The notes beneath the pieces are model-generated. The model saw only the letters and a list, made by a program, of their open reading frames with translations. It was not told the origin of the DNA and did no database searches. The translations under genes were made by a program, and so were the position numbers. Below are positions 1,537 to 38,582 of a stretch of 64,000 bases of DNA, one piece after another; position 1 is the first letter of the stretch, and the number at the start of each line of letters is the position of its first letter. The stretch is from a phage, in sequence record PX853108.1; one strand, 5' to 3'.

Positions 1537-1539
1537 AAC

Positions 1540-2218: not shown

Positions 2219-2231
2219 AATTGCATTCCTC

Positions 2232-2270: not shown

Positions 2271-2418
2271 TTACCGTTTTCTATCACGGGTCAGTTCATC
2301 ACCCTAGATACATGTGTATCGTTAGCCTACTAGGTAGGAAAGGAGCCGGGCAACCCTGACTGTAGAAGTTATTAACTCTTTACGAGTACCGCCACTGTCT
2401 ACTAGGCGGCATGACTAA

Positions 2419-2709: not shown

Positions 2710-2880
2710 AGGTTACTCCTTTTGGGAATAGGGTCATCGGAACATTACATACTATTTAGTATCATGAACTTTTTCTATATCATGACTAAAGTGTAACTGT
2801 ATGGTATCGTTTCTTCAAGGGGTAACTCATCCCAAGAAAAGAATCTTCTTTAATAGACATAACTTTGTAGCGAGATAAGT

Positions 2881-3570
2881 ATGAGTGAACTAACTAAGCA
2901 GCAGATTATTAATGCCTTACCTGCTAACTTCAAAAACAGTGTGACCCAGGAGTTGGTAGACACAATCAACAACATAACCCAAGACCAACTGGTTGCTGAG
3001 TCCTTCCGTGAAAACTTTATCTCCTACTCTGGTGTAATGAAGGAAGGTAAGTTTAAGACACAGGACTACATGAATGCAGTTCAGTATGTGACTTACAAAC
3101 ACATGGGTTACTCAAATAAGGAAGCCTACTTCAAGACATTCCCTAACCGACAAGCAGAACTTGTTGCACGAGGAACCAGTGAGAAAGACATTAGTGCTTA
3201 TGTATCCGCTTACCACAGAGGTAAGCTAGTTAACCTCATCATGGAACAAAGTTTGGTTCCAGTGTGGATTGTGAACCAGGACAACTATCAGAAGGCAATC
3301 AACGTTCAGGTTGAACTGATGACTACAGCAGCAAGTGAAAAAGTAAGATGTGATGCAGCTAACTCTATCCTTACTCACTTAGCTAAACCGAAAGACCAGG
3401 TAACGAATATCAATCTGGACTTGAGAGAGAACTCTGGATTAACTGACCTCAAGGCAACACTTGCTGCATTAGCTGAACAGCAAATTAACGCAATCAATAG
3501 TGGTGTACCTACCAAAGAGGTTGCTGGTTCTAAACTAGTACGTGCAGATGAGGACATTACAGATGTCTGA
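2881..3570 (+). CDS. Putative terminase small subunit / packaging protein
   Basis: 229 aa ORF immediately upstream of and overlapping the terminase large subunit (ATGTCTGA overlap); first gene of the plus-strand late block. Call rests on position only. Confidence 0.3.
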   Translation: MSELTKQQIINALPANFKNSVTQELVDTINNITQDQLVAESFRENFISYSGVMKEGKFKTQDYMNAVQYVTYKHMGYSNKEAYFKTFPNRQAELVARGTSEKDISAYVSAYHRGKLVNLIMEQSLVPVWIVNQDNYQKAINVQVELMTTAASEKVRCDAANSILTHLAKPKDQVTNINLDLRENSGLTDLKATLAALAEQQINAINSGVPTKEVAGSKLVRADEDITDV

Positions 3571-8547: not shown

Positions 8548-8601
8548 TATTTATATAGCCTCCGTAACTGGAGGCTTACTTAGAAAAACAAAGAGGTTGT
8601 T

Positions 8602-10892: not shown

Positions 10893-11222
10893 ATGAATGA
10901 ATCGGGTGAACTGCTTCTAGTCAGACTGGAGGAACGATTGAAGACTCTGTTTGATAACCAGGCAAGAGACAGACAGGACCGTGAGAAACTGGAGGAAACT
11001 CTGGTAGAACTACGGGATTCAATCAATGACATAGGTAATAGATTAAAGAATGTGGAGGATAGCTTAGCTAAGAATGAACCTACTATTGAAGAGTTCATCA
11101 CCATTAAGCATAAAGTTGTTGGTGCTGGAATTTTTGGTAAGTGGGTATGGGCTGGGGCAGGTGCAATTATCGGTGTATTAGCTGCTGCAAGACGGGAGAT
11201 ATTCGCATGGTTCGCAGGCTGA
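10893..11222 (+). CDS. Membrane-anchored coiled-coil protein (lysis-associated; antiholin/holin-like)
   Basis: 109 aa; charged coiled-coil N-terminus and one C-terminal hydrophobic Gly/Ala-rich segment (VVGAGIFGKWVWAGAGAIIGVLAAA); first gene of the lysis cluster. Confidence 0.35.
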   Translation: MNESGELLLVRLEERLKTLFDNQARDRQDREKLEETLVELRDSINDIGNRLKNVEDSLAKNEPTIEEFITIKHKVVGAGIFGKWVWAGAGAIIGVLAAARREIFAWFAG

Positions 11223-11467
11223 GAAGAAAAGTAGAGTTAGTACCCAACTGGAAAAGGTGCTGGAAGTGGGCATCCATTCAGATTAGTACCGTTGGCTTAA
11301 TTTTATTTTCTGCCATAGATATTATCCAACCAATGATGACAGGATTACCTCGTCACATCCTGGAAGATATTCCCCATGGTTCCAATATTGCAATTGCACT
11401 GTTTGCCTTGAACATCATAGGCAGATTAATACGATTCCGACCAAAGGAAGATTCTCATGAAAGCTAA
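11207..11467 (+). CDS. Holin candidate (two predicted TM segments)
   Basis: ORF 11141-11467 trimmed to ATG 11207, which overlaps the upstream stop; two hydrophobic segments; stop overlaps the endolysin start (ATGA). Confidence 0.4.
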   Translation: MVRRLRRKVELVPNWKRCWKWASIQISTVGLILFSAIDIIQPMMTGLPRHILEDIPHGSNIAIALFALNIIGRLIRFRPKEDSHES

Positions 11468-19289: not shown

Positions 19290-21944
19290 ATGGGCTTATT
19301 CAGTGGGAAGACCAAAGTATACGTAGCATCCTCTGTCTATAACATGGCAGGGGATATACATAAACGTCCTAACTATATGAAGACTGTAGTCATTGGTAAC
19401 ATTGTTTCCAATACAGGATTCACTATGGCAGATACTATCTCTGATAGTTATCTGAATGGACCAGGTATTCGTATGCGACTGTTCTCCAGCTGGAGTAAGA
19501 ACCACTATGATTCAGAAGTTGGTATGGCAGGTTCTTCATTGGGTGTACTGGCTAAGATTGATCCTACTGTAATAGAGGGTCAAATTACACCTCCTGCTGG
19601 GGAATCTGTTTATGTTCAGGCAGCAGAGATTGGCTTTGCTGACTTTGAGCAATGGTGTGACCAGTATCTTTATGAGAATGCACCCAGTCGAATCATGGAA
19701 CGATTCGACGTAGACATTGATGAAGATACTAATGAAATTACTATGACCTCCCTGGATGGAGGTTCTACTATTAAATTCACGCCTACTAACTTTGAACCAG
19801 GTGCTTTGTATCTCTATGCTGATTACTCTTTCTATAAATCTCCTGTTACTAATCCGCCAGTAGTAGGACCAACTACTGTCTATGATAGTGAGGATGACTT
19901 ACCATCTACTTTGTTATGGACTACCATCTCAAGTGACACAACAGCTAATACAACTAATCTTACCAAGACAATACATACCCATTCTGTTTACTCTGATGGT
20001 AGACCAGATGAAGACAGTACTGTTACTGAACCAAGTGTGGATAACTGGAACTCTTACGTTAAGGTCTACCGTAGAGGATTTACCGAGAAACCTGATGACG
20101 TAACTGTAGTTGTATCTGACAGGGTAATGACTCATAAAAAGTTCGGTGAGATTCAATCAAGTACTACTGTAACTACTAATGTAGTTGATATAGGTGGTGG
20201 TGTTACTCGTACTGACACAATTACTACAACCACAGAGACACTGGTTCGTAAGTATTCATCTCAGACTACTCGTACTGATACTGAGATGACTGCTGTTGGC
20301 ACACCTAAGATGCTTATTTATAAACAGAATTCCGGTAACGTTGTACTGGATTCACTGTTTGAAACCGAGGCTACTGACAACCGATTCTACCCATTCATTC
20401 CAATCAGGAATGATAAACAATGGGTAGAGAATGACCCAATCTACCCACACTGTAAGAAAGCTCTTTATAAAGCTACTGGTGGAAAAATTGATAAGGTAGT
20501 GACAGAACTTAAGAAGAATAAGGATATAGGTGATATTCAGTACATTTACGGTACATTCGGTGTATCTCTTAATACCCCAGAGGATACTGCTAAGGAATAC
20601 ATCTACCGTTTCTTTCAGATGGCTACTGAAGCATTCCCACCTGACCCAACCTACCCGACTTTGGAAGCAGTAATTGCAGGTTATCAGGCAGCTAATGATG
20701 CAGTTGATGCATATGTAGAATGGTGGAACAGGACGGAAGGGCACACTATTGGAACTCCCCCACCACTGCCAGAATACCCTGTCATACCTAAGCGAGAGTT
20801 TAGGGTACACAGTAATAAACACTACAAGTACGATATGACCATTGGTTGGAATTACGTGTCTGAAACTACCCACTCAGGACAAGCATGGTCTGGTGCTAAG
20901 CAGGGTCAACTTCGATCCAGGTATGCAGGAGATATAACTCTTACTCGCAAGAATATACGTACTGCTAGTAACTCAGGTTCAACTAAGAAGCTGGAGGTAA
21001 CTACTACGTTCTATTCAATGCAGGAGTATGAGTTGCTTTGGCAGGATGGTAATGACACTTACCGTAAACTCAGAGTACTGGGCCTAAATCACAATAACAG
21101 AGTATATAAGAATAAGTCAGTACATATTGATGTTGCCGGGGCAATGGGTGATGCAGAGGAGAGTGGATTCATTATTCCATTACACACTAACATCTACCGT
21201 TCCATGTCACTGGTTCGAAGTACTCAGCTATCTACTGCCTGTTCCTACTTAGTGATGAACTCATATAAGAAGGTTAAGAAGAAATGGTATCAGACTGGGG
21301 CATTTAAGATTGTTGTTGTTGTGGTCGCTGTGGTTATCTCTGTATTTACAGCTGGTGCTGGTGGTGCAGGTATACTTGGAGCGTATGGTGCAGTTGGTGC
21401 ATCTCTGGGTTTTGTTGGATTAGCTGCTGTAATAGTCGGTGCTGTAGCAAACGCCATTGCTGGAATGATTCTGGTATCTATTATCACTAAAGTATCCGCC
21501 TCACTGTTCGGTGATAAACTCGGTTTTATTATTGCAGCTATTGCTTCAATGGTAGCTATGAATGTTGGTACTGCATTGTCTACTGGTACATCATTATCTA
21601 CCTTAGCTAGTGAAATGATGAATGCCCAAAACATTATGCAGCTTACCAGTTCAGTAGGTAATGGTATTAGTCAGTATATTAATGCATCTACGGCTGCTAC
21701 TATTCAGAAAGCAGAGAAAGTAATGCAGCAGTACAATACTGATATGATGGCAATCAATAAGCAGTATGAAGAGATGTTTGGTACTGCTGGGCAGGGTGTA
21801 ATTGACCCAATGCAATTCGTGTCAATGGAGTCACTGGATTCATTCTTATCCCGTACTCTCATGACTGGTTCAGATATAGCTGACTTGTCTCTAGACATGA
21901 TTGGCAACTACTCTGACATGACCCTTAATACAGACCTTGTTTAA
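19290..21944 (+). CDS. Large internal virion protein with C-terminal Gly/Ala-rich multi-TM region (putative ejection/channel protein)
   Basis: 884 aa; residues ~670-780 (nt ~21300-21600) form consecutive hydrophobic glycine-zipper-like segments (FKIVVVVVAVVISVFTAGAGGAGILGAYGAVGASLGFVGLAAVIVGAV...). Confidence 0.4.
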   Translation: MGLFSGKTKVYVASSVYNMAGDIHKRPNYMKTVVIGNIVSNTGFTMADTISDSYLNGPGIRMRLFSSWSKNHYDSEVGMAGSSLGVLAKIDPTVIEGQITPPAGESVYVQAAEIGFADFEQWCDQYLYENAPSRIMERFDVDIDEDTNEITMTSLDGGSTIKFTPTNFEPGALYLYADYSFYKSPVTNPPVVGPTTVYDSEDDLPSTLLWTTISSDTTANTTNLTKTIHTHSVYSDGRPDEDSTVTEPSVDNWNSYVKVYRRGFTEKPDDVTVVVSDRVMTHKKFGEIQSSTTVTTNVVDIGGGVTRTDTITTTTETLVRKYSSQTTRTDTEMTAVGTPKMLIYKQNSGNVVLDSLFETEATDNRFYPFIPIRNDKQWVENDPIYPHCKKALYKATGGKIDKVVTELKKNKDIGDIQYIYGTFGVSLNTPEDTAKEYIYRFFQMATEAFPPDPTYPTLEAVIAGYQAANDAVDAYVEWWNRTEGHTIGTPPPLPEYPVIPKREFRVHSNKHYKYDMTIGWNYVSETTHSGQAWSGAKQGQLRSRYAGDITLTRKNIRTASNSGSTKKLEVTTTFYSMQEYELLWQDGNDTYRKLRVLGLNHNNRVYKNKSVHIDVAGAMGDAEESGFIIPLHTNIYRSMSLVRSTQLSTACSYLVMNSYKKVKKKWYQTGAFKIVVVVVAVVISVFTAGAGGAGILGAYGAVGASLGFVGLAAVIVGAVANAIAGMILVSIITKVSASLFGDKLGFIIAAIASMVAMNVGTALSTGTSLSTLASEMMNAQNIMQLTSSVGNGISQYINASTAATIQKAEKVMQQYNTDMMAINKQYEEMFGTAGQGVIDPMQFVSMESLDSFLSRTLMTGSDIADLSLDMIGNYSDMTLNTDLV

Positions 21945-21957
21945 CAGGAGAATCCCC

Positions 21958-22401
21958 ATGGATTTGTCATTCTTAACAGGCAACCAAACCCCACAGCCAG
22001 CTGCTATGTCTTGGATGTCTAATAACAATCAGAACTTTAATACCCCGGCTATGAACTATAACCCTGGTGCAACTATTGGCATGGGTACGAATTTGGGTAC
22101 ATCTGCTTCTACTCCTTTCATGTCTGGCTCAGCTGGTCAATTGGGCATGAACGTACCTACCTTCCAACTAGGACTGGGTGCTCTTGGCTCATTAGCTAAT
22201 ATCTATAGTGGTTTCCAGGCTAATAAATTAGCTAAAGACCAGTTGAACTTTGCTAAGAGTGTTACTAACACTAACCTGAATAACCAGATTAAGTCTTATA
22301 ACACTGCACTGGAAGACCGTGCTCGTAGCCGTGCTGTTGCAGAGAACCGTGACCAATCCACTGCTGATGCTTATATTGCAGCTAATAAATTAACCCGTTA
22401 A
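21958..22401 (+). CDS. Small virion protein
   Basis: ORF 21937-22401 trimmed to ATG 21958 (AGGAGAA at 6 nt); Gly/Ser/Asn-rich. Confidence 0.4.
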   Translation: MDLSFLTGNQTPQPAAMSWMSNNNQNFNTPAMNYNPGATIGMGTNLGTSASTPFMSGSAGQLGMNVPTFQLGLGALGSLANIYSGFQANKLAKDQLNFAKSVTNTNLNNQIKSYNTALEDRARSRAVAENRDQSTADAYIAANKLTR

Positions 22402-24385: not shown

Positions 24386-24410
24386 AAAAGCCCTACGGGG
24401 CTTTTTTCTT
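24386..24410 (+). terminator. Intrinsic terminator upstream of the vRNAP gene
   Basis: Stem AAAAGCCC/GGGCTTTT with TACG loop, followed by TTCTTT. Confidence 0.7.
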
Positions 24411-24472
24411 TAACTGGCTTACTGTAGAGTAAGTTACCTATATACGATATAAGTTTGAATAGGAAACATGCT

Positions 24473-27400
24473 ATGTCAACATTTGACCGTCTGGCAGGTT
24501 TCGCAGACAGCATCACTAATGCTAAGCAAGTCGATGTCTCTACTGCAACCTCCCGGAAGCAAGCTGCACAGGGGCAAAGCCCTTTCCAATTAACCCCAGA
24601 TAATGCTTACAATCTACAGACTGGACGAGTAGGTAATCTTGGAATCGGTGCATACGAACCAGGTTCACTTCAGGCAGATTTCACTCAAGCCTCCCCCTTA
24701 GAAATCATTAATAAATATGGTAATGAGCAAGGTCTACAGATTCTTAATAGTCGAGCTAATGCTGCTGATGCTGTACGTCAGGACTTATCTAAACAACGTA
24801 CTAACGCAGAAGCATTTGGCGATATCCTTTCTGGTGTTGGTCTTGGTGTTGCTAATACCCTTGGGGGCATTGCTGCTCTTGGCACAGGCTTGGTCAATGA
24901 TAATGCCGGGGCATCCATTGCTTCCGGTCTTGACTGGTTGAATAAAGGTGTACACAACCTACAGTCCGATGCACTGAATGCTCGCCGTAATGTAGTACAG
25001 AACCAGAACGTAATATCTGCACAGGAAAATGAGAAACTCTATAAGCAAGATATTGCTAAAGGAGAAAGCGAACTCGTTGCTTCCCTGTCTCGCATTGGTC
25101 GTGATGCTTACGATTCTGTTGCTAATACCCTGTCTAACGGCATGGCTGCTACTGATGGTATTGCTGAAGGTGTAGGTTCTCTGTTTACTGGTGGCCCATT
25201 AATCCGTGGTGTATCTGCACTCGGTAAGGTAATGGTAGGTGGAGATAAAGCTGTTAAGGGTATTACCTTAGCTGCTGAGTTAGGTTCACGTCCTGCACGG
25301 ATTGCACAGTCTGCTGGTCGTGTTGCTGCACCTGCTATAGCAATTGGTGGTATGGAAGCTGGTGGTGCATACCAACAGACTGCTAATGAAATTATGGAAA
25401 TGCCATTCAGTGAACTGGCTGCTAAATCTCCAGTATACCAACAGCATATTAAAGATGGTTTATCTCCTGAAGAAGCACGTCGTCAGACTGCATCTGAAAC
25501 AGGTATTACTGCTGCTGGCTTAACTGCTCCAGTTGCTGCTCTTACTGGTCCACTGGTATCCAAGTTTGAACTTAACCCACTCAAGGTAGGTTCACTGGCT
25601 GGTGCTGGTTCTAACATGCTGCGTGAGACTGTAGAAGAAGGTATCCAGTCTGGTACAAGTCAGTTCGCACAAAACACTGCAATCAAGGAAAATGTTGATG
25701 CATCTCGTGACATCCTCAAAGGTGTAGGCGAACAAACTGGTCTTGGTGCATTGTATGGCTTTGGTTCTGCTGGGGTTGCTCAAGCTCCTGGTGCAACTGT
25801 TAAGGCTGCTGGTGCTGCCGTTGGTCCTGCTGTACGTACTACCCTGGCTGGTGCTTCTTTGGCTGGTAAGGCACTAGCAAAAGTAGCCTCCCCTATTACT
25901 AACATCCTGGTTCAGCGTGGTGAAGAAGTAGCTAAACGTAACGAACAGGCATCTCCTGTATCTGATGCTACGGTTAATGCTGCTGCACAGGAAGCTACTG
26001 CTCAGGCAGAACAGGCCCAGGCAACCGTACAGGAAGCAGTAGATGCAATGGATATTTCTCCAGAAGAGAAAGCTGCTGCTACCCAGTATGCTGCTGACTT
26101 AACTCAGGTAATGAAGTTTGATCCAGTAGAACTGGAACAAGCTAGCCCTACAGTCCGTGAAGCTGTTTCTGGTTCCACTAACCGTGTTGAAGCTATTCAG
26201 AAGATGGCTGACCTGGTTAATACTGCCGAAGACCCTAACGTTCAAATGGAAGCTGCAATCCAGATGTACGACAACATCATGTCTATGGATAGCTTCATTA
26301 ACCGTGACCCAGGTGCTCTGGCTAATCTGGAACAAGGCTCTCCTGCTGCTAATATCGTTGACCAATTCTCTGGCCTGATGGCTAACGTTCAGAATACACC
26401 GAAAGTACTTCGTGCATTCCGTGCTATTCATTCCATGATTCAGGAACAGGCAGAAGCAGGTAAACTGAAAGCTACTGAAGAAGCTAACCAAGCCCAGGCA
26501 AACAATATTGCCATGGCTGCTGATATGTCTCCAGAAGTACTGGATGCAGATTCAGTAAACATGGTTCTGAAACATGCAAGTGAAGGTAAGATTACACTGG
26601 GGAATCGTCAGCGTGCTGCCCTGCAATCTGCTGCTGCCTTGTTACAGGGTGCACGAGAATTTGACGCTAAAGCAGAAGAACTAGGCTTACGTCCTCAAGA
26701 CATTGTTAGTAAACAGATTAAAACCGACGAGTCTCGTTCTAATGAAGGCCAGTACTCTGCGTTGCAACATGCTAAACGCATTCGTTCTGCGTACAACTCT
26801 GGTAACTTCGATTTGGCTTCCGCTTATCTCGACGACTTTATGAAGTTCGCCCAGCACATGCAGAATAAGGTCGGAGCGTTGAATGAGCATCTGATTTCTG
26901 GGAATGCGGATAAGAATAAGTCTGTCCATTATCAGGCTCTTACTCCCTCCCGTGAATGGGTACGTAGTCGTACTGGCCTCGGTGTCAATCCGTATGATAC
27001 CAAGTCTGTTAAGTTTGCCCAGCAAGTAGGACTGGAAGCCAAGACCGTAGCTGATATTGCTAACGCACTTGCTACGGCTTACCCGGAGCTTAATGTTTCT
27101 CATGTTAAGGTTACCCCATTGGATTCCCGTTTGGACAAGCCTGCTGCCCAAGTAGTTAAAGAGTTCCGTCAGGGCAATCTTGATGCTGCTCAATCCCAAC
27201 AGACCAATGAACCAGTGAATCAGGTTGATGAATCTCCTGTTACAAAACAGGAACCAGTTACCCCTACTGTACAGACTAAACCCTCTGTTAGTGAAGCTGT
27301 TAAAACAGAACCTACTATTAAAGAGTCTAAACCACAGACTGCAAAAGAACCTGAGAACCAGTCTGAAAAACAGGATGCTGTTGAACAGCCTACTGAATCT

Positions 27401-30400
27401 GAAAGGGATGCTTATGTAAAAGAGAATACTATTTCTCAAGAAACTCTTAATAAGTATGGTGACCGTAGGGAGAGTCCTTGGCTATTTGCTGATGGTACTG
27501 TTGTTGGTTCCAATGGTGACCATATCAGCCTGTCTGATGTATTTGGTCATGATGGTTATCGTGACATGTCTTTGGATACTGGTGCTGTACGTTCTACTTT
27601 CTACAAAGGAAGTGAGCAACCGTTCGTATCCCTGCAATTGTTTGATAATCAGAAGCTAACTGCTGAACAATTCAATACTGTTCAATCATTCGTAGAAGCA
27701 AACAATGCACTGATTCAGATTGGTGTAGATACATCTGGGCTTAATACCAATAACGTTGAGAAAGAAGAAGTATCACTGGCTCAACTGAAAGCAGACTATA
27801 CCGTTGGTGGTAAACCCCTATCTCAAATGGAAACAGTGTTCCCTGTCTATAACAATGAAAAGACATCGAACCAGTTCCTTAAAGCATTTTCTCTACCAGA
27901 GGAGCCTAAGTCTCGTACCATTGGTTCTGAATCTCCTTTGACTGATGTTAAGAAAGCACTGTCTTCTGCTGCCCGCTTTGAAGCATTCACTCAAAAAGAA
28001 AATAACGCACTCACGAGTGATGTGATTAAGCGTTACCAGGATTTGTTTGATTTTGGTGAAACTTTGAAGACCACTCTGTCTGACCGTCTGGCTAAGTTCC
28101 TTGCTAACAAGAACGTTGGTAAACGTTTTGCAGAAGGTACTGAGGCTAACCGTTGGGTGGGTGGTAAGTTACTTAACATCGTAGAGAAAGATGGTGATAC
28201 CTTTAAGTTCAACGACCAGTTGTTAGAGACTGCTGTACTTGCAGGTTTGCAATGGCGACTAACTGCTACACAGAATGCTGCTGTTAAAGACATGAAAGAC
28301 GTAGCTGCTATTACTGGTGTGGAAGCATCTCTGCTACCAGAAGGTATCCTCGCAGAGTTTGAGAATGCTCAAACCTTAGTAGAGGCTACTAACTCACTGG
28401 CTCAGAAGATTGAATCCTATTGGGGGCTTAATCGTAATGCTGATGCACCATTGGGTTATACCAAGGGTATCCCAATGGCAATGGCTACAGAGATTCTGTC
28501 TTCTCTCATTGAGATGGGTGAAGTTAAAGAGTCCATGCTGGATGTGTCTGAGATTGACCCAGAATCTAATAAGACCGTTGGTTTGTATACCATTGAGAAG
28601 TTAGATGATAACGATGCCATTAATAAATTCCCTACTGCTATTGAGGAAGCAGTCCTTCTAGAACCAGTAGAGAAATTGTACTTGGGTGATGATATTCCTT
28701 CAGTGGCTCAAACTCAGTTACGTAACCCGGCTGTCAAGAATACCCCGGAACAGAAAGCTGCTCTTAAAGCAGAACAGGCTACTGAGTTCCGTGTACACAT
28801 GCCCATGGTTAACTTCTATGAAGCATTGGGTCGTGACAACATTCTGGAATTGATGGGTGCTGGTGCTCTTAACCCAGAATTGCTGAATGTGAATACTGCT
28901 AAATCTCTGGAAGGTAAAAACCTGTCCGTGTCTATGGCATATGATTCCTTGTTTGGTGTTATCAATCAGATTAAGGAACAGGAGAATGGACTGGATACAC
29001 CTATTCACTATGGTTACAACATGACCCGTGTAGGTCGTATGCAGATGCTTGGTAAAAATAACCCACAATCCAGTAAGCTGGTCCGTGAAGCAATCTTACC
29101 AACCTTCTCTACCATCGACTTGAGCAATGAAAACAGTCAAACGTTCTCCGATTTCCAGTTAGGTCTGGCTCAGGCATTGGGCATCAAAGTTCATAAAATG
29201 TCTCGCGAAGTTATGTCAGATGAACTGACTAAAGCTCTGGAAGGTAAACTGAAACCTGCCGTTGATATGATGGTTGAGTTTGATAAGTCTGGACACTTAC
29301 CTACTGATGCAGTGGATATTCTGAAGACCTCTTTGGGTAATGATAAATCATTTGTAGCTCTCATGGCTCTTATGGAATATGCCCGTTACCTTAACAGTGA
29401 TGACCGTGCCAACTTTAATACCCCACTGTACGTTGAAGCTGATGGTGTAACCAACGGACCAATCAACGCAATGGTATTAATGACTGGTGGTAAGTTCACC
29501 CCAGACTGGATTAAGAATACTGCTAAAGGTGGCTTGTTCTTCGGTAAAGCTGGCAAGACTATGAACGAGCATCATTCGCACGAGGACAGTGTTGACCTGT
29601 ATGAAGCATCCACTAATGGTCTGCAACAAGCACTGAATGAATTACGTAGTACTTACCGTAACAACGTTCCTGTTATGAACCAGATGAACCATCTCCAGAA
29701 ATTAATGGACCTGTTCATTAAAGATTTCAATCTTAAGGAAGATGGTACTCTGGACCTGAAACGTGGTATTGCGAAAAACCCACTGACCATTACCATTTAT
29801 GGTTCTGGTGCTCGTGGTATTGCTGGCAAGATGGTTAGTGCAATTACTGATACCATCTACGAACGCTTCAGTGACGTTCTACAAGCTCGTGCTGCTGACC
29901 CTAGCATTTCACCAGCTATGGCTATGTTTGGTAAGGAGGCTGCGTCTGAGGCTGATGCTCAGGCTATGCTGGATACTTTCCTTACTTCTATGGAAGCATT
30001 GACTGGCAATGTTCCGGTTATGCGTAAAGGTGAGTTGTCTATTCAGCAGGTAGAAGGTGCTCTGACCGGTAAATTAGACCCTCAGAAGTTTACTGTATCA
30101 GGCAATGCTCTGAAGAATTTACAAGAGAACATGCTTCACTTGTTCGTTGAACCAATGCGTACTGGTATCCGAAATACTGTTGGCGAAGGTTTGATGTACT
30201 CTACTGAGAATTTGCAGAAGGCTACCCAGATTCAGTCTCTGGTATTGCAGGATATGTTCCAACAGGCAGTACAGGCTAAGCTGGCAGAAAAAGAAAAAGA
30301 CCCAACATGGAAGAAAGGTGATTTCTTAACACAGAAAGAACTGAATGAAATCCAGAATAGCTTAGCTCCACTGGCTCCAATGATTGAGACTGGTTCACAG

Positions 30401-33400
30401 ACTTTCTACATTGCTGGTAGTGAGAATACTGATGTTGCTAACCAAGTATTGGCTACTAACTTAGATGACCGTATGCGTGTACCAATGAGCATCTATGCTC
30501 CTTCACAGGCAGGCGTTGCAGGTATTCCGTTTATGACCATCGGTACTGGTGATGGCATGATGATGCAGACCCTTTCTACTATGAAAGGTGCTCCGAAGAA
30601 TACCCTGAAAATCTTTGATGGTATGAACATTGGTATCAACGATATCACCGATGCAAGCCGTAAAGCTAATGAGGCTGTATATACTTCCTGGCAGGGTAAC
30701 CCTATCAAGAATGTTTATGATTCCTTTGCTAAGTTCATGAAGAATGTAGACTTCAGTAAACTGTCTGATGAAACCAAACAGGCTATCGCTAAGTCTGCTC
30801 TGGAGTATGACCAGCGTGAGGGTGCTACCGATGACCTGTTACGTGTTGGTGCTGAACAGATTGAACGTAACCTGCGTAACATTGCTTTGGGTGTAGATAT
30901 TCGTCACAAGGTAATGGACCAGGTACAGGTCACCGTTGACCAGATGGCTGCTGTTGGTGCTCCTTACGTGAACAACGGTAAAATCTCTCTGGAAGGTCTG
31001 ACTGTAGACCAGCAAGTAGCTAAGCTGAACGAACTGTTTGATGCTGAATTAAACAAACGTCGTGATGCAGTTCGTGCTGCTAAAGCAGAACCAGTGAAAG
31101 AAGTACCGGCTATGGAGAAGGTTGGTCGTGTACTGAAGTCTGGTGTACGTCTGTTGTCTAATACTGCCATTACTAAGCTGGCTAAAGAGATGTCTCCTGA
31201 ACAGCAAGCAGTATTGAAAGAAATACAGAAATCCCTCGCTGCTAAAGACTATAAGGTTGTTTACGGTACACCTGCTCAACTGGATGCTTATGCTATTGAG
31301 AAGAATATTACTCGCCCAGCACCGGAAGATATTGAAGCTGCTGAAGCTGGTAATGCATATGGCTGGACTAACTTTGAAGATAAGACCATCTACTTAGTTA
31401 CCCCTTCCTTAGAGACTCTGGTTCATGAATTGGTACATGCTACTACTTTTGAATCTGTACTGGCTCATTATGAGGGTACTCCTAATGAAGCAGTACAGAA
31501 TATTGAAGACCTGATGAACCAGTTCCTTACTCTGGATGTTAAGGATGAATCTCCGGCTGTACGTGAAGCGTATGCCGATGCACTGAATACCATTAATGGT
31601 CATTTGTCTAATGGCTTCATTGAACCCGCAATGGCTAAAGCTGCTGCATTGAACGAGTACATGGCTTGGGGTTTAACCAACCGTGAACTGATTAGCAAGC
31701 AGAAGAAAACTACTGCACTTAAAACTATGGTTCAGGCTGTATATGAAGCAATCAAACGTCTGGTATTTGGACGTAAGAAAGCTCCAGCTAATGCAGATGA
31801 TATGTTCTCTGGCTTACTGTTTAACTCTGCTGTAGTAATGCGTGGGCAAGCTCCTACTGCTGCTGTAGCTAAAGACACTACTCTGTTCCATAACAAAGCA
31901 TATGGTGACAATACTCGTCTGGAAGAGTTAGGTAAGACCTTTGATAAACTGATTACTGACTACATTGGTTCAGAACCAGTACAGCAAGTAATTCGTAAAG
32001 GTAAATTCTCTGATGCAGTAGTGAATGCAACTAAAGTAACCCGTGATGTTCAGGCTCATGGCTTCACCATGAATATGCAGGAACAACGCCTCTTCACTAA
32101 CATTGTTGCTGCATTGGCTACTGAGGCTGCTATTAACCCTGCTGCTCTTGCTCGTGCACAGGAATACTACACGCATGTTACTAAAAACCTGACTGTTGAA
32201 GCATTTATGGCTGACCCTGATAGTACTAACCCTGCTGACCGTTATTATGCACAGCAGAAGTTCGATACTATCATGGGTGCTAACAACATTGAGTTTGATG
32301 CACAAGGTCGTTCTTCCTTACTGCCTACCTTTGTTGGTCTGGCTATGGTAAGTGAAGAAGTACGTAAGGTTCTGGCTGATATTCCTGTTATGAAAGCAGA
32401 TAAGAAATCAGGCAATACTGTTGACGCAATGCTGACTAACATTGGTACTGCTGCAATGGCTAGCCTGAATGCTCGTGTAGCAGGTGATACTAAAGCCACT
32501 AACGTACAGGAAGGTATGGATGCACTGGCTCAGACAATCATGCAGACCAGTCTTAATGCAGAATCCTTCTATGATTCCGTTGCTACCCCTACTGGTAATG
32601 CTATCGACCGTGCTAACCAGTATCTGGTGGATTCTATTGATGTACTGTCTACCCGTGCTTTGGAAGGTGCTCGTGAAGTTGCAGCTAATACCAAGAACCC
32701 GTTGGTTAAAGGTGCTGCTCATGCTGCACAATTGGTAGCTGCTATTGCTACAGAGAAGAATGGTGCAATCGTAGCCGAAGGTGTTATGGCTGCAATGAAC
32801 CAGGGTAAAGTATGGCAACCCTTCCATGACCTGGTTAATGACATAATCGGACGTACTAAGAGCAATGCTTCTGTATACGATTTGATTAAAGCAGTTCGTG
32901 CACAGGTACAGGCTGACCGTCAACAGTTCCGTGAACACTTGCCTACCACTATCGCATCCAAGTTCAGCCGTAAGCTGACTAATGATGAGTGGAAAGCAAT
33001 GCATACAGGTATGGGTAAAACTGACTTAGCTGTTCTGCGTGACACTATGTCTCTGGATGAAATCCGTGACCTGCTGTCTGACCAAAAGATTGTTGACCGT
33101 GAGGTTAATAAACTGGAAGCAGATTTGCAGAAACAAGCAGGACGTAACTGGCCTCTGATTAGTCGTAAATCTAAGCAACTGGCTCAGTACATGATTAATG
33201 GTACGGTTGGTAATAACCTGTTGCGTAATGCTACTGCAATTTCTCGTTTACTGGGTGAACGTAAGACTACACGTTCTGTTGTAGATGTAGCTCAACTGGA
33301 TAAACTCATTACCCTGTATGCACTGGAAGCAATGAATAAAACTGACCGTGAGATGTTATCTTCACTGGCTCAGACAGAAATTGAAGGTATGGACTTTGCT

Positions 33401-35227
33401 ACTTCTTACCTGGTTGGTCAGCGTAAAGATGAAATGGCTAAAGCTAAGTCTGATAGTCGTGCAACCCTGAACCAGTACAAAGGGTATATTCCTGGTGAGA
33501 ACAAACAGGGTGTTAACCTGATTGTTGCTGAAGATAGTCAGTTTGCTGATTTGATTGAGAAATCCTATGTACGACTGGGTACTTATCAGGGTAGCTCTGC
33601 TAATCGTGGTCCAGCACGTAGTTACTACTTTGCACCGGTACAGGCACAGGCTCCATTCTCACAAGGTATCCTACAGAACGTTCGCAATACTGCTGGTGGC
33701 GTAGACCTTGGCACAGGCTTTACGATGGGAACCATGGTAGCTGGTCGTATTACTGACAAGCCTTCTGTAGACCGTATCACTAAAGCACTGGCTCGTGGTG
33801 AACGCGGTAATGAACCACTGCTGCCTGTATATGATGCCAATGGTAATGTGGTTGCTTACGAGCAATCCATTGACCCTAACATGCTGAAGCACATCGAAGG
33901 TGAGAACCATCTTGCTCGTGCAATTGGTGTATGGCGTGGTCGTCAGGTGGAAGAAGCTAAGGCTCAGCGTTTCAACGATATGCTGATTGAGAACCTGCAT
34001 AGCATGTACGAGAACGACATTAAGATGTCTGCTTCTAATAAGTCCCAGTACGTTAACCTTCTTGGTTCGAAACTGGACCCAGTAACTGCCGATGCTCTTA
34101 AACTGATGAACAGTGAAACTCGTCAGAAAGCAGAAAGTCTGTTTGGACCGGGTGAGTTGTGGGTACGTCGTGACATGCTCAACGATGCACTGGGTTATCG
34201 TGCAGCTTCTGTTGGTGATGCCTGGTCTGGTAATTCTCGTTGGTCCCCAGAAACACTAGATACCTTCAAGAAAGCTATGCTGGGTGTCTTTGGAAACCGT
34301 GCTTATAAGTACGTAATGGGTGGTGAGAATCTGGTTCAAAACTTAGTTAAAGAAGCCAAGACTCTGATTGTAGTTAAGTCAGTAGTCGTACCTGCTGTTA
34401 ACTTCCTGGCTAACCTTTACCAGATGGTTGCTCGTGGTGTACCTGTTAAGAACATTGCTAAGAGCATCCCACAGAAAACTGCTGAGATTAATCAGTATCT
34501 GAAATCTCGCCTGCGTCAGGTAGATGCAGAAGCAGAATTACGTGCAGCTACTAACCCTAACCAGATTCGTAAGCTGAAGGCTGAGATTCAGTCCATCACG
34601 GATAGCCATAAGCGTTTGAGTATCTGGCCTCTGTTAGAAGCTGGTGAGTTTTCTTCAATTGCAGATGCTGGTATTGGACGTGATGACATCCTGATTACTG
34701 AAGGTAAACTTCACGAATACATGGAAAAGCTGGCTGATAAGTTGCCTAAGTCTGTACGTAATGCTGGTCGTTATGCACTTATCACTAAGGATACTGCTCT
34801 CTTCCAGGGTATCCAGAAGACGGTTGAGTACTCTGACTTTATTGCTAAAGCAATCATCTATGATGAACTGACTCAGCGTAAAGGTAAGACCCGAGAAGAA
34901 GCACTCGGACGTGTAACGGAAGAGTTCATTAACTATGACCGTTTGCCTGGCCGTTTCCGTGGGTATATGGAAAGTGTTGGTCTGATGTGGTTCTACAACT
35001 TTAAGATTCGTTCTGCAAAAGTTGCAGTGTCCATGATTCGTAACAACCCAGTACATGCTGCTATGGCTATGTTGGCTCCAACTCCTACCATGTTTGGTAA
35101 CGTTGGTCTGCCTATTAAGGACAACATCTTTAGTATTGCTGCACAGGGCAACCTCGGTTACTCCTTCGGATTCGGTATGGGCTTACGTGCCCATACCCTG
35201 AACCCGTGGCTCAACCTCACTAACTAA
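24473..35227 (+). CDS. Virion-encapsidated RNA polymerase (N4 gp50-like giant vRNAP)
   Basis: ORF 24455-35227 begins at TTG; first ATG with RBS AGGAAA is 24473 (~3,584 aa). Central region has T7-like motif A (ADGVTNG, nt ~29423), motif B (RGIAKNPLTITIYG, nt ~29762) and motif C (IFDGMNIG, nt ~30611). Confidence 0.85.
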   Translation: MSTFDRLAGFADSITNAKQVDVSTATSRKQAAQGQSPFQLTPDNAYNLQTGRVGNLGIGAYEPGSLQADFTQASPLEIINKYGNEQGLQILNSRANAADAVRQDLSKQRTNAEAFGDILSGVGLGVANTLGGIAALGTGLVNDNAGASIASGLDWLNKGVHNLQSDALNARRNVVQNQNVISAQENEKLYKQDIAKGESELVASLSRIGRDAYDSVANTLSNGMAATDGIAEGVGSLFTGGPLIRGVSALGKVMVGGDKAVKGITLAAELGSRPARIAQSAGRVAAPAIAIGGMEAGGAYQQTANEIMEMPFSELAAKSPVYQQHIKDGLSPEEARRQTASETGITAAGLTAPVAALTGPLVSKFELNPLKVGSLAGAGSNMLRETVEEGIQSGTSQFAQNTAIKENVDASRDILKGVGEQTGLGALYGFGSAGVAQAPGATVKAAGAAVGPAVRTTLAGASLAGKALAKVASPITNILVQRGEEVAKRNEQASPVSDATVNAAAQEATAQAEQAQATVQEAVDAMDISPEEKAAATQYAADLTQVMKFDPVELEQASPTVREAVSGSTNRVEAIQKMADLVNTAEDPNVQMEAAIQMYDNIMSMDSFINRDPGALANLEQGSPAANIVDQFSGLMANVQNTPKVLRAFRAIHSMIQEQAEAGKLKATEEANQAQANNIAMAADMSPEVLDADSVNMVLKHASEGKITLGNRQRAALQSAAALLQGAREFDAKAEELGLRPQDIVSKQIKTDESRSNEGQYSALQHAKRIRSAYNSGNFDLASAYLDDFMKFAQHMQNKVGALNEHLISGNADKNKSVHYQALTPSREWVRSRTGLGVNPYDTKSVKFAQQVGLEAKTVADIANALATAYPELNVSHVKVTPLDSRLDKPAAQVVKEFRQGNLDAAQSQQTNEPVNQVDESPVTKQEPVTPTVQTKPSVSEAVKTEPTIKESKPQTAKEPENQSEKQDAVEQPTESERDAYVKENTISQETLNKYGDRRESPWLFADGTVVGSNGDHISLSDVFGHDGYRDMSLDTGAVRSTFYKGSEQPFVSLQLFDNQKLTAEQFNTVQSFVEANNALIQIGVDTSGLNTNNVEKEEVSLAQLKADYTVGGKPLSQMETVFPVYNNEKTSNQFLKAFSLPEEPKSRTIGSESPLTDVKKALSSAARFEAFTQKENNALTSDVIKRYQDLFDFGETLKTTLSDRLAKFLANKNVGKRFAEGTEANRWVGGKLLNIVEKDGDTFKFNDQLLETAVLAGLQWRLTATQNAAVKDMKDVAAITGVEASLLPEGILAEFENAQTLVEATNSLAQKIESYWGLNRNADAPLGYTKGIPMAMATEILSSLIEMGEVKESMLDVSEIDPESNKTVGLYTIEKLDDNDAINKFPTAIEEAVLLEPVEKLYLGDDIPSVAQTQLRNPAVKNTPEQKAALKAEQATEFRVHMPMVNFYEALGRDNILELMGAGALNPELLNVNTAKSLEGKNLSVSMAYDSLFGVINQIKEQENGLDTPIHYGYNMTRVGRMQMLGKNNPQSSKLVREAILPTFSTIDLSNENSQTFSDFQLGLAQALGIKVHKMSREVMSDELTKALEGKLKPAVDMMVEFDKSGHLPTDAVDILKTSLGNDKSFVALMALMEYARYLNSDDRANFNTPLYVEADGVTNGPINAMVLMTGGKFTPDWIKNTAKGGLFFGKAGKTMNEHHSHEDSVDLYEASTNGLQQALNELRSTYRNNVPVMNQMNHLQKLMDLFIKDFNLKEDGTLDLKRGIAKNPLTITIYGSGARGIAGKMVSAITDTIYERFSDVLQARAADPSISPAMAMFGKEAASEADAQAMLDTFLTSMEALTGNVPVMRKGELSIQQVEGALTGKLDPQKFTVSGNALKNLQENMLHLFVEPMRTGIRNTVGEGLMYSTENLQKATQIQSLVLQDMFQQAVQAKLAEKEKDPTWKKGDFLTQKELNEIQNSLAPLAPMIETGSQTFYIAGSENTDVANQVLATNLDDRMRVPMSIYAPSQAGVAGIPFMTIGTGDGMMMQTLSTMKGAPKNTLKIFDGMNIGINDITDASRKANEAVYTSWQGNPIKNVYDSFAKFMKNVDFSKLSDETKQAIAKSALEYDQREGATDDLLRVGAEQIERNLRNIALGVDIRHKVMDQVQVTVDQMAAVGAPYVNNGKISLEGLTVDQQVAKLNELFDAELNKRRDAVRAAKAEPVKEVPAMEKVGRVLKSGVRLLSNTAITKLAKEMSPEQQAVLKEIQKSLAAKDYKVVYGTPAQLDAYAIEKNITRPAPEDIEAAEAGNAYGWTNFEDKTIYLVTPSLETLVHELVHATTFESVLAHYEGTPNEAVQNIEDLMNQFLTLDVKDESPAVREAYADALNTINGHLSNGFIEPAMAKAAALNEYMAWGLTNRELISKQKKTTALKTMVQAVYEAIKRLVFGRKKAPANADDMFSGLLFNSAVVMRGQAPTAAVAKDTTLFHNKAYGDNTRLEELGKTFDKLITDYIGSEPVQQVIRKGKFSDAVVNATKVTRDVQAHGFTMNMQEQRLFTNIVAALATEAAINPAALARAQEYYTHVTKNLTVEAFMADPDSTNPADRYYAQQKFDTIMGANNIEFDAQGRSSLLPTFVGLAMVSEEVRKVLADIPVMKADKKSGNTVDAMLTNIGTAAMASLNARVAGDTKATNVQEGMDALAQTIMQTSLNAESFYDSVATPTGNAIDRANQYLVDSIDVLSTRALEGAREVAANTKNPLVKGAAHAAQLVAAIATEKNGAIVAEGVMAAMNQGKVWQPFHDLVNDIIGRTKSNASVYDLIKAVRAQVQADRQQFREHLPTTIASKFSRKLTNDEWKAMHTGMGKTDLAVLRDTMSLDEIRDLLSDQKIVDREVNKLEADLQKQAGRNWPLISRKSKQLAQYMINGTVGNNLLRNATAISRLLGERKTTRSVVDVAQLDKLITLYALEAMNKTDREMLSSLAQTEIEGMDFATSYLVGQRKDEMAKAKSDSRATLNQYKGYIPGENKQGVNLIVAEDSQFADLIEKSYVRLGTYQGSSANRGPARSYYFAPVQAQAPFSQGILQNVRNTAGGVDLGTGFTMGTMVAGRITDKPSVDRITKALARGERGNEPLLPVYDANGNVVAYEQSIDPNMLKHIEGENHLARAIGVWRGRQVEEAKAQRFNDMLIENLHSMYENDIKMSASNKSQYVNLLGSKLDPVTADALKLMNSETRQKAESLFGPGELWVRRDMLNDALGYRAASVGDAWSGNSRWSPETLDTFKKAMLGVFGNRAYKYVMGGENLVQNLVKEAKTLIVVKSVVVPAVNFLANLYQMVARGVPVKNIAKSIPQKTAEINQYLKSRLRQVDAEAELRAATNPNQIRKLKAEIQSITDSHKRLSIWPLLEAGEFSSIADAGIGRDDILITEGKLHEYMEKLADKLPKSVRNAGRYALITKDTALFQGIQKTVEYSDFIAKAIIYDELTQRKGKTREEALGRVTEEFINYDRLPGRFRGYMESVGLMWFYNFKIRSAKVAVSMIRNNPVHAAMAMLAPTPTMFGNVGLPIKDNIFSIAAQGNLGYSFGFGMGLRAHTLNPWLNLTN

Positions 35228-35233
35228 ATGAAA

Positions 35234-35255
35234 AAGCCCCTCTAATGAGGGGCTT
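35234..35255. terminator. Bidirectional intrinsic terminator at the plus/minus convergence point
   Basis: Stem AAGCCCCTC/GAGGGGCTT with TAAT loop, 7 nt after the vRNAP stop; the minus-strand side has a TTTTTCATTT tract. Confidence 0.6.
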
Positions 35256-35290
35256 CTGCTAGTACTCATACTTGATGTGCTGTAAAGGAT

Positions 35291-36497: not shown

Positions 36498-36754
36498 TAG
36501 TAGCTTTAACGCAGCTAACGAGGCTTGTATGAGTGCTAGGATTTGTAACTCCCAGCATATCCCCACCGTTTTAGCTGACGGCAAACAGAGATTGATAGTC
36601 TCAGAGGATACTTTACTCAGGCGAGTATTATAGTCTACTCATACTCACACTACCCTAACGGGTAGTATGTTTGCAATACCTAGAGTGCCGGACTGTCTCA
36701 CCGGCATTGTCTTTAGAGTGCAATGCAATCAGGACTATGTTCTCTATTAATGAG

Positions 36755-36828
36755 TACCCACTACTGGATTTGAACCAGTGACCTTCCGATTATTAGTCGG
36801 TTGCTTTCCCCGTCTAAGCTAAGTGGGC
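36755..36828 (-). tRNA. tRNA, hand-folded anticodon AAT (Ile?); no encoded CCA
   Basis: Minus-strand sequence GCCCACT-TA-GCTT-AGACGGGGA-AAGC-A-ACCGA-CTAATAA-TCGGA-AGGTC-ACTGG-TTCAAAT-CCAGT-AGTGGGT-A: 7-bp acceptor (G1-U72), D arm, T arm with TTCAAAT loop, 7-nt anticodon loop with U33 and A37. A34 is unusual. Confidence 0.7.
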
Positions 36829-36833
36829 ATAAA

Positions 36834-36909
36834 TGGTTACCCGGACAGGATTCGAACCTGTGTCCTAGTTGGTTTACTAGTGGGGCTTTACCACTAAGCC
36901 TACCGGGTA
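36834..36909 (-). tRNA. tRNA-like gene with encoded CCA but non-canonical anticodon arm
   Basis: Minus-strand TACCCGG-TA-GGCT-TAGTGGTAA-AGCC ... ACAGG-TTCGAAT-CCTGT-CCGGGTA-A-CCA: perfect acceptor, D and T arms; the anticodon region CCACTAGTAAACCAACTAGG folds only as a 5-bp stem with 6-nt loop or 4-bp stem with 8-nt loop. Confidence 0.6.
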
Positions 36910-37493
36910 TTAATGAGTGAGTCACGCCAGACTTTAACTGGCTCCTTCTTCGCAATCCTTACATACCCCTACATAATTATTGCGTTAAGCTTTTTTGTTT
37001 AAGTTTAAGTGAAGGCGTTCTTGCTGACTCATAATAGGTTGGGCGTTTGACGAATGACTAGTTCGTTACTACCCGTTTGCCATAAGTACCTGGCGACTTT
37101 GGTTTGAGGTGGGAGTCCGAGTCCTGTACAGCCTTACCGTTCACACATTGGCAGCGTATCTAGAATAGCACTTCCGGCAACTGGATTTAACTGTTACACC
37201 TCAAATCTGGTAGGGGCGTCCAGAAGTCTCATCTGGTACTTACGCCGTCGTATGGTTACGACTTACCCCCATAATCTTTCTAATTCAGAGTAGCACTGCT
37301 CCACGTTTGGCCTTTGAACTCCGGGATGGATTAGTGCAATGCTACTTTGAATTAGTTGTCAGGGATTCCACCTGGCTCCATCTGTTTTTATAGTCACTCA
37401 GATATCGTCTGGACTCTTTACTATGGGACTCACCGGCTACTTAGAGTAACTACGGTAAATATTATTCCACAGCTTACATTGATGTCGCATCCC

Positions 37494-37577
37494 ATCAAAG
37501 AGTACACTAGCACTGGGCCACGCATAAGTGGGCATCGGCCTTCCTCCCACAGCTAATCTACTAATGTACTCATTGAT
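37494..37577. repeat. Repeat unit A bounded by 17-bp imperfect terminal inverted repeats
   Basis: 5' end ATCAAAGAGTACACTAG and 3' end CTAATGTACTCATTGAT are reverse complements at 15 of 17 positions; followed by a GC hairpin at 37582-37608. Confidence 0.5.
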
Positions 37578-37749
37578 TGGCCCCCCGTTTCTAATACATG
37601 GACGGGGGAACTCCACGGTCGTTTGATAATCAGGACGACTCACTCCTGACTGACGCTTGGCTTATTAGGCTGCCATCAGAACAACATCATCGTTTGCATT
37701 TATGTTATTGGTTCGTTTCTAAAAAACCGCATAATCGCTTACGAAAACT

Positions 37750-37850
37750 ATCAAAGAGTACACTAAGCACAGGTAGCTATCCTGCCGTCTTCTCCACCTA
37801 CACCGGCTACAGTGTAAACCTCCGCACGTTAGCTTAATGTACTCATTGAT
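37750..37850. repeat. Repeat unit B, second copy of the TIR-bounded element
   Basis: 5' ATCAAAGAGTACACTAAG and 3' CTTAATGTACTCATTGAT (16 of 18 complementary); ends nearly identical to unit A, interior diverged but shares CTTC(C)TCC(C)AC. Confidence 0.5.
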
Positions 37851-38035
37851 AGGATGTCATAATAGGGGAGGGAGGACGAGTCCCTCTTTACCCTATGATT
37901 TAGTTTGCATGTAAGACCTAACAATTCGATGCTGTAGGTAGCTATGCTATCCGACATTTAACCCAGCCCATATAGGGGCTTATGTGATTAAAATGCTCAA
38001 CATTGAGCGGTTAGTTGATAAGGGATCTGAAGCCT

Positions 38036-38063
38036 TATCCCAAAGATACTAACCTTTGGGATA
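38036..38063. other. Perfect 10-bp stem hairpin in the ORF-free region
   Basis: TATCCCAAAG-ATACTAAC-CTTTGGGATA; neighbouring hairpins at 38080-38105 (AATGGCC / CCTATAGGGAGA loop / GGCCATT) and 38164-38194 (CTGACG...GGGG-GGCCA-CCCC...CGTCAG). Confidence 0.4.
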
Positions 38064-38582
38064 TAGCCTAAGATTCAGAAATGGCCCCTATAGGGAGAGG
38101 CCATTGATTAACCCGAATGTTGCTTTACCTTTTATGTGATAACCCATTCTTAAAATAGTCTAGCTGACGGATGGGGGGCCACCCCTAGCGTCAGTGCCAT
38201 ACGGCAAAGATTAAGTTAAGAAAGGTTATGATAGGAGTTCCTATCTCAAAGGATTCTAACAGAACCCTTCACGATATTAACTACTCAACGTGAAATTCTT
38301 TGATTCCCTCGACAGGTTCTACACCCCAGGAAAAAGCTAACTTTTCCATTTAATTTTGATTGAACCAATGGACTGGGGAGAGTATTCCAATCCACTGGTT
38401 CGGTTGTTGTTGTTACTCTGGCGGCTTGTCACCACCGTTTTTATCACTGAGTTTCCAAAGTATAAGCACAGTGATGATAAATGCTATGTATGGAGCCGAC
38501 ACGTCCAGAATCCTGATAAGCAATAGCATCAGAATTACGAACACTACCACAAATAGCAGCAGCTTCTGAGCCACCTACCAGA

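Follow-up and report, generated by a model that had tools for sequence, protein, structure and literature searches.

The N4-type virion RNA polymerase (vRNAP) has been studied for about 50 years. In the N4 protein, gp50, the N-terminal domain (NTD) is helical, associates with membranes and has been implicated in injection (PMC13434306, PMC13492108), and a disordered linker some 100 residues long (907-1006; PMC13434306) comes next. The polymerase part, known as mini-vRNAP, has the right-hand fold of T7-like RNA polymerases (RNAPs) (PMC4496689), and encapsidation depends on the C-terminal domain (CTD), which also autoinhibits the polymerase (PMC13434306, PMC13492108). Full-length gp50 structures appeared in 2026, in which the RNAP-CTD part was solved and the NTD was too flexible to be resolved. 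A zincin-like HExxH metallopeptidase domain was described as 'always fused' to N4-like RNAPs, which were classed among the polyvalent proteins as combinations of RNAP with a metallopeptidase-like domain (MPTase) and, optionally, ART, lysozyme or PBECR1 (Iyer et al. 2017, PMC5512222); the HExxH in the gp50 CTD was noted again in a 2026 cryo-EM paper (PMC13434306). Here we analyse a 64,000-nucleotide stretch of phage DNA (PX853108.1; hereafter the window) and a giant open reading frame (ORF) at its positions 24473-35227, which we predict to encode an N4-type vRNAP with an additional folded domain inserted between the NTD and the polymerase domain.

A predicted gp50 orthologue of the N4 type

The ORF as called mechanically extends on the + strand from a TTG at 24455 to 35227. 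An ATG at 24473, preceded by AGGA, gives a product of 3,584 amino acids (aa) whose N terminus, MSTFDRLAGF, closely resembles the MSVFDRLAGF of N4 gp50, and the resulting coding sequence of 10,755 nt has the exact length annotated for phage nithesis. As this start matches N4 gp50 and the length equals the nithesis annotation, the ORF is real, and the single ORF of about 3,584 aa proposed in an initial annotation of the window is borne out.

Among the closest known relatives is N4 gp50 (YP_950528; PDB 2po4, 3c2p and 3q0a; full-length 9pnq, 9pnr and 11gp). Aligned globally, the query (3,584 versus 3,500 aa) is 67.6% identical to it and collinear end to end, with 60.1% identity in the NTD (query aa 1-900), 71.7% in the polymerase domain (aa 1131-2207) and 70% in the CTD. 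With phmmer, the N4 gp50 chains in the PDB, full-length entries of 3,500 residues among them, matched far beyond chance (E = 0) over residues 1-991 and 1130-3583 of the query; 2po4, 3c2p and 3q0a match the polymerase domain, also at E = 0. In profile searches, query residues 25-3583 aligned to positions 5-3405 of the 3,406 in PHROG 2206, 'virion RNA polymerase'. Pfam models of N4 vRNAP domains were matched at 336 bits (PF21894), 196 bits (PF21867), 190 bits (PF21769) and 92 bits (PF21624), against a gathering cut-off of 27 for each; the names matched in the polymerase domain are vRNAP_dom_2, vRNAP_plug, N4_RNAP_helical and vRNAP_dom.

At the DNA level, 59 records share at least 80% identity across the vRNAP gene, and about 30 listed records reach 90-94% over 98-100% of it. 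Relatives at 90-94% include vB_EcoM_PD205, PE007, nithesis, Bp4, ECBP1, St11Ph5, pSb-1 and G7C. The source phage is a G7C-like coliphage (Gamaleyavirus, Enquatrovirinae, Schitoviridae).

Catalytic and promoter-contact residues

The roles of the catalytic and promoter-contact residues of the N4 enzyme have been reviewed, and our numbering is based on the same source, in which mini-vRNAP starts at gp50 residue 998 and E557 is a motif A residue (PMC4496689). In the global alignment, D1657, R1764, K1768, Y1776 and D2049 of the query fall on gp50 residues 1556, 1663, 1667, 1675 and 1948, that is, on mini-vRNAP D559, R666, K670, Y678 and D951. We take the names D559 and D951 for the N4 catalytic aspartates to be those of Kazmierczak 2002. 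The motifs pointed out by the initial annotation, ADGVTNG (motif A), R-x3-K-x7-YG (motif B) and FDG (motif C), all lie where it had placed them and coincide with N4 catalytic residues, both catalytic aspartates included. It had also given the distance between the motif A and motif C aspartates as about 390 residues, as in N4, and we count 392 in both proteins.

Residues R1522, K1535, R1538, E1655, D1657, R1764, K1768, Y1776 and D2049 are identical to the aligned N4 residues, among them K437, R440 and E557. The hairpin-promoter contacts K114, R119, W129, D901 and R904 of N4 are kept as K1213, R1218, W1228, D1999 and R2002, so that all 14 functional residues checked, catalytic and promoter-contact, are conserved between the two proteins.

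T7 RNAP and mitochondrial RNAP share the catalytic motifs TxxGR/DxxGR, A, B and C with the query. Unlike T7-like RNAPs, the vRNAP is about four times larger and, in N4, is packaged in the virion and uses hairpin promoters on a single-stranded template. The Pfam T7-type RNA_pol model gave no match to the query at E <= 0.1; the T7-family relationship rests on the motifs and on the N4 crystal structures (PMC4496689).

Together, DNA and protein identity, the Pfam and PHROG 2206 matches, the conserved functional residues, an HExxH motif in the CTD, gp51- and gp52-like neighbours and synteny identify the predicted product as an N4-type, single-chain, virion-packaged DNA-dependent RNAP of the T7 family and an orthologue of gp50. 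This upholds the initial view of a giant N4-type vRNAP with T7-like motifs. The identification is already known, as many GenBank records annotate the gene as 'virion RNA polymerase'.

In several close relatives the gene is misannotated: 'DNA polymerase' in PD205, HK2, U1G, PBM-2 and ST4, 'gram positive anchor domain protein' in ECBP1 (JX415535) and 'translation initiation factor 2' in phi G17. In pSb-1 the gene is broken into three ORFs. Antisense ORFs of 250 aa (26687-27439), 198 aa (32408-33004) and 130 aa (26099-26491) lie on the - strand within the vRNAP gene of the window; we assume these to be shadow ORFs within a coding region that is strongly conserved.

Domain layout and an inserted domain at the end of linker 1

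With borders drawn by homology, about 1,117 aa precede the polymerase domain and about 1,380 aa come after it. The initial annotation was right that there are long extensions at both ends; its sizes of about 1,600 and 1,500 aa had been counted from the motifs and do not hold as domain sizes. It further considered the extensions to be free of recognisable motifs and the place where lineage-specific novelty would sit. Neither view survives the comparison: the CTD carries the published HExxH as HELVH at aa 2318-2322, aligned with the HELVH at N4 gp50 residue 2228, and the NTD and CTD retain the identity to N4 given above. The novelty is found in linker 1 instead.

Linker 1 varies by insertions and deletions between phages, and small ones separate the query from N4 in both linkers. 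The HMMER alignment to N4 is interrupted at query residues 991-1130 versus N4 1005-1026, and global alignments place an insertion of about 118-132 residues here, both against N4 and against Gamaleyavirus PW8. The insertion lies at the C-terminal end of the linker, immediately ahead of where the modelled residues of the N4 polymerase domain begin; here QMETVFP of the query is aligned to GIDAVYP at about N4 residue 1007. Judged from these alignments, this folded domain of about 130 aa (aa 986-1115), at the junction of linker 1 and polymerase in the query only, is the sole architectural difference from N4. The two proteins have in common the TxxGR motif, motifs A, B and C, the promoter-hairpin contacts, the HExxH and the gp53-gp52-gp51-gp50 neighbourhood. 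Compared with nithesis-type Gamaleyavirus vRNAPs the query shows no architectural difference, insert included.

Within Gamaleyavirus the linker is polymorphic. The PW8 vRNAP (3,452 aa) has no insert in linker 1 and is 97.2% identical to the query outside it; the nithesis protein (3,584 aa) has the same insert and is 97.2% identical to the query; and that of G7C (3,748 aa; 91.1% identical) has the same insert plus a second, unrelated insertion of about 136 aa. One genus thus contains linkers with no (PW8), one (query) or two (G7C) inserted modules. In a tblastn search of the phage collection, the insert was found in 29 records, all Gamaleyavirus, of about 59 close records, and in none of N4, the Klebsiella N4-likes or other non-Gamaleyavirus phages. 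Its presence does not track backbone similarity (PW8 is without it, G7C with it), a pattern that points to recombination or repeated loss, and it is somewhat AT-richer than the gene as a whole (GC 0.408 versus 0.447; GC at third codon positions 0.285 versus 0.361). The copies of Gamaleyavirus carriers are 93-98% conserved. Because near-identical phages lack it, the insert is dispensable for vRNAP function.

The second insertion of G7C (NC_015933, about 8470-8930) measures about 136-150 aa, has the sequence STSVPNGPEMKTAEFTGKQQATYMQIGQYFDYNGKEY... and lies upstream of the shared inserted domain. Its site is equivalent to the position just after query aa 963 (nt ~27360).

A conserved domain shared with polyvalent proteins

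When 1.84 billion representative proteins were searched exhaustively with HMMER, 22 matched the insert, of which we kept 19 single-copy homologues after dropping two repeat proteins and one fragment. A word-indexed protein search returned no matches, not even the known Gamaleyavirus proteins, which we put down to a limit of the index and not to absence. The family domain spans about 123 residues, and its copies are 23-66% identical to the query (19 sequences). Eight columns are invariant (S16, P17, L19, G23, D31, H32, R55 and Q81), and the family signature reads GD-x3-SPWL-x-DG-x7-DH ... TGA(I/V)R ... Q-x-LT-x-x-Q.

None of the 19 members matched Pfam at E <= 0.01, no Pfam LPD model among them, and the insert had neither a PHROG nor an NCBIfam match; in the PDB, its best sequence match was partial and not significant (E = 0.012). 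AlphaFold2 run on the 19-sequence alignment gave an α/β model with a pLDDT of 93.4 and a pTM of 0.88, superseding a poor single-sequence model (pLDDT 57). An independent BFVD model of the pSb-1 fragment superposes on it at a TM score of 0.93. As modelled, the insert is therefore a discrete, conserved and confidently predicted domain.

The homologues sit in host proteins of 352-3,675 aa, mostly 1,000-3,700 aa, with one 166-aa stand-alone protein in addition. Among the domain sets of these proteins are SLT, SNF2-type helicase (ResIII/Helicase_C), MTase and LPD39 together; MTase, ddrB-ParB and LPD39 together; and, in others, LPD38, LPD22, InPase, SLT or a TrwC relaxase (P0020). On a Vibrio plasmid the domain lies within an LPD7 protein. 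It is thus common to the query vRNAP and to polyvalent proteins such as the DarB-like antirestriction proteins, which are presumed to enter the cell together with invading DNA, and like other polyvalent-protein domains it recurs in large proteins beside known domains of this kind. The main text of Iyer et al. 2017 (PMC5512222) makes no mention of a vRNAP fused to this domain. The family is apparently undescribed, and it may be an LPD, one of the 40 of Iyer et al., that was not deposited in Pfam.

Three homologues whose surroundings we examined (P0003, P0014 and P0020) lie in a phage or conjugative-element context. P0014 (3,597 aa), on a schitovirus-like contig, is a distant but genuine N4-like vRNAP in which the domain occupies the corresponding position, some 710-730 residues ahead of the helical subdomain. 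P0003 is encoded on a temperate-phage-like contig beside tail-fibre, lysis and integrase genes. The P0003 gene is similar to one in Serratia phage Parlo for a DarB-like antirestriction protein, and over 104-190 bp its domain copy shares 77-81% DNA identity with the Gamaleyavirus insert. Such identity between the insert and a DarB-like gene suggests that the module was exchanged fairly recently among unrelated enterobacterial phages.

In one such comparison, positions 27468-27571 of the window match 11161-11264 of a temperate-phage-like metagenomic contig (L005) at 81% DNA identity over 104 bp (E = 2e-23), within the gene for a 3,675-aa DarB-like polyvalent protein. The gene for the stand-alone 166-aa homologue (P0010; L008 6001-6501) adjoins a ParB gene (ParB_N/HTH_ParB) and a prokaryotic ubiquitin-like set (Prok_Ub, Prok-E2_D, Prok-JAB and ThiF). 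Not far off are genes for a DNA polymerase beta-clamp and an exonuclease, surroundings that look like a mobile element or phage.

Neighbouring genes and flanking elements

The vRNAP gene belongs to the late/structural block; directly upstream of it lie gp51- and gp52-like genes, in the gene order of N4 and G7C (Table 1). In N4, gp52 and gp51 are the two channel-forming ejection proteins (PMC13434306); the paper is inconsistent on their places, with gp52 as the periplasmic tunnel in its abstract versus the outer-membrane complex in its Discussion and Fig. 8 legend, and gp51 likewise. The true start of the gp52-like gene is probably downstream of the listed TTG. The 884-aa ORF at the head of the block had no Pfam match; it matches nithesis CDS0018 in position and near-equal length, and the gp53 of G7C is annotated 'similar to N4 gp53', so that our assignment of this ORF is one by position and size.

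Table 1. Coordinates in the window of the vRNAP gene, its domains and motifs, and neighbouring features
Feature	Position	Strand	Basis or remark
gp53-like gene, 884 aa	19290..21944	+	First of the gp53-gp52-gp51-gp50 block; position and near-equal length as G7C gp53
gp52-like ejection protein gene	21937..22401	+	60% identical to N4 gp52, E = 2e-48
gp51-like ejection protein gene, 651 aa	22414..24369	+	49% identical to N4 gp51 over 649 aa, E = 0
Terminator-like GC hairpin, then T-run	24386..24405	+	Consensus scan and sequence AAAAGCCCTACGGGGCTTTTTTC; between the gp51-like and vRNAP genes
Virion RNA polymerase gene (predicted gp50 orthologue)	24473..35227	+	3,584 aa plus stop
N-terminal domain (aa 1-901)	24473..27175	+	60.1% identical to N4 gp50; mapped border
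Linker 1 (aa 902-985), low-complexity P/T/Q/E/K-rich tether	27176..27427	+	Aligns to N4 907-1006 linker
Inserted globular domain of about 130 aa (aa 986-1115)	27428..27817	+	Absent from N4
RNA polymerase domain (about aa 1118-2202)	27824..31078	+	N4 mini-vRNAP / Pol equivalent
TxxGR motif (TRVGR, aa 1518-1522)	29024..29038	+	Motif named in PMC4496689
Motif A, ADGVTNG (aa 1656-1662; D1657, E1655)	29438..29458	+	N4 D559, E557
Motif B, R-x3-K-x7-YG, RGIAKNPLTITIYG (aa 1764-1777)	29762..29803	+	R1764/K1768/Y1776
Motif C, FDG (aa 2048-2050; D2049)	30614..30622	+	N4 D951
C-terminal domain (aa 2217-3584)	31121..35224	+	70% identical to N4; mapped border
HExxH motif (HELVH, aa 2318-2322), zincin-like C1 / metallopeptidase-like (MPTase) subdomain	31424..31438	+	N4 HELVH
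GC-rich hairpin	35232..35257	.	Scan; right after the vRNAP stop, where + and - gene blocks converge

The N4 gp51 and vRNAP genes are described as one operon. The strong hairpin between the corresponding genes of the window could attenuate expression of the vRNAP as compared with gp51 and gp52; this would agree with a few copies of the polymerase versus about 12 per virion. The hairpin after the vRNAP stop resembles a terminator when read on the - strand, and at the corresponding site of G7C terminators are annotated on both strands.

About 1.5 kb downstream of the vRNAP gene, two adjacent tRNA genes occupy 36754-36909 on the - strand. One is a tRNA-Ile with anticodon AAT and the second was left untyped by ARAGORN (abnormal anticodon loop, 'ac'); in the nithesis annotation the two appear as tRNA-Ile and 'tRNA-OTHER'. 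Some 2 kb past the tRNA genes (about 36600-38580) has no ORF of at least 100 aa, whilst the nithesis record shows many hypothetical ORFs of 30-55 aa on both strands of its counterpart; the stretch may hold small genes, a regulatory RNA or an origin.

Discussion

We regard it as very highly probable that, as a whole, the locus encodes a gp50 orthologue with an N4-like mechanism and an accessory insert in linker 1. The same mechanism as in N4 (PMC4496689, PMC13434306, PMC13492108) is expected for this phage, because identity is 60-72% in every domain and all functional residues checked are kept. On this model, a few vRNAP copies would be packaged in the capsid, for which the CTD would be required. 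Upon adsorption (receptor binding), the gp52- and gp51-like proteins would be expelled to form an envelope-spanning channel, through which the vRNAP would next pass as a loosely folded chain, like 'beads on a string'. The NTD (aa 1-901) would associate with the inner membrane, and linker 1 would tether the polymerase domain (aa ~1118-2202), which would recognise early promoters in hairpin form through K1213, R1218, W1228, D1999 and R2002 and transcribe the early genes with D1657 and D2049 as its catalytic aspartates. The CTD (aa 2217-3584), with its zincin-like HExxH module, would pack on the polymerase and autoinhibit it. As an accessory cargo module of about 130 aa, the insert would, we infer, be delivered into the host cell in cis with the polymerase.

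Two limits apply to this account. A search of the 64-kb window for early promoter hairpins, with one N4-like pattern and at most two mismatches, gave no matches, an uninformative outcome given that the early region of the phage probably lies outside the window. Moreover, packaging, ejection and promoter use in this phage are carried over by analogy with N4.

What the insert itself would do is less certain. By the logic of Iyer et al. 2017 (PMC5512222), its association with DarB-like, ParB-like and relaxase proteins suggests an accessory function early in infection as the likeliest one, possibly exerted on nucleic acid or against host defence. A more specific proposal, which we put forward tentatively, is that the SPWL/DH/TGAIR domain is an undescribed, horizontally exchanged effector. 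Some Gamaleyaviruses would carry it into the cell covalently attached to the vRNAP, the first enzyme that the incoming genome meets, and it would act as the DNA enters, perhaps shielding the genome against restriction or another defence like the DarB-like proteins that share it. In schitovirus vRNAPs, linker 1 would then serve as a general 'cargo slot', an idea prompted by the two inserts of G7C and by the matching location of the domain in the distant vRNAP. The main rival, to which we give a comparable and likewise limited probability, is that the insert has no activity of its own and is a mere structural bead or spacer, a small extra globular unit that lengthens or stiffens the tether between the membrane-anchored NTD and the polymerase and would be tolerated for lack of constraint on linker 1. 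Such a spacer would suit a disordered linker of about 100 residues with many insertions and deletions between phages (PMC13434306), the second unrelated insertion of G7C shows that the site tolerates insertions, and insert-less phages exist as deposited isolates. Yet the eight invariant residues are mostly polar or charged (S, D, H, R and Q), as would sooner be expected of a binding or catalytic site than of a spacer, and are retained across widely diverged copies; the domain is reused in many unrelated multidomain injected proteins and in a stand-alone protein, and it is strongly conserved among Gamaleyavirus carriers. The invariant polar residues and the wide reuse argue against a neutral bead.

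Another reading, which we consider rather unlikely, sees in the insert a degenerate module of the PD-(D/E)xK (restriction-endonuclease), Hjc or splicing-endonuclease fold class, nuclease-like or binding nucleic acid, that acts on DNA or RNA at entry. Foldseek searches of PDB and BFVD gave no fold match but do list Hjc, a Holliday junction resolvase and PD-(D/E)xK proteins at E values of 0.04-0.5, and the domain co-occurs with MTase, SNF2 helicase, ParB and relaxase; however, gelsolin/ADF folds score equally well, and the invariant residues form no PD-(D/E)xK motif. A self-splicing or selfish element (mini-intein or homing-type) that is absent from the mature protein seems extremely improbable. 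The length of about 130 aa falls within the mini-intein size range, the insert is patchily present among near-identical phages, and G7C-group phages carry introns and mobile insertions in other polymerase genes (bioRxiv 10.1101/542787), but the homologues lie between unrelated domains in many proteins and one stands alone. An intein was ruled out by the lack of an N-terminal Cys/Ser nucleophile block and of a C-terminal HN-[CST], and by the site, which is a variable linker and not a conserved catalytic site; an intron was ruled out by the reading frame, which is continuous through the insert.

Confirmation of this vRNAP in itself adds nothing new, as the gene has been deposited many times at 92-94% DNA identity and full-length structures were published in 2026. 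The side value lies in the disordered linker between NTD and polymerase, a polymorphic insertion site that holds an unnamed folded domain; we see the insert as a small, real and apparently undescribed side observation of modest value. If it has a function in anti-defence or DNA entry, near-identical phage pairs (the query phage or nithesis versus PW8, 97% identical elsewhere) would provide a clean test system, and such a function, if true, would extend the view of vRNAPs as 'polyvalent proteins'.

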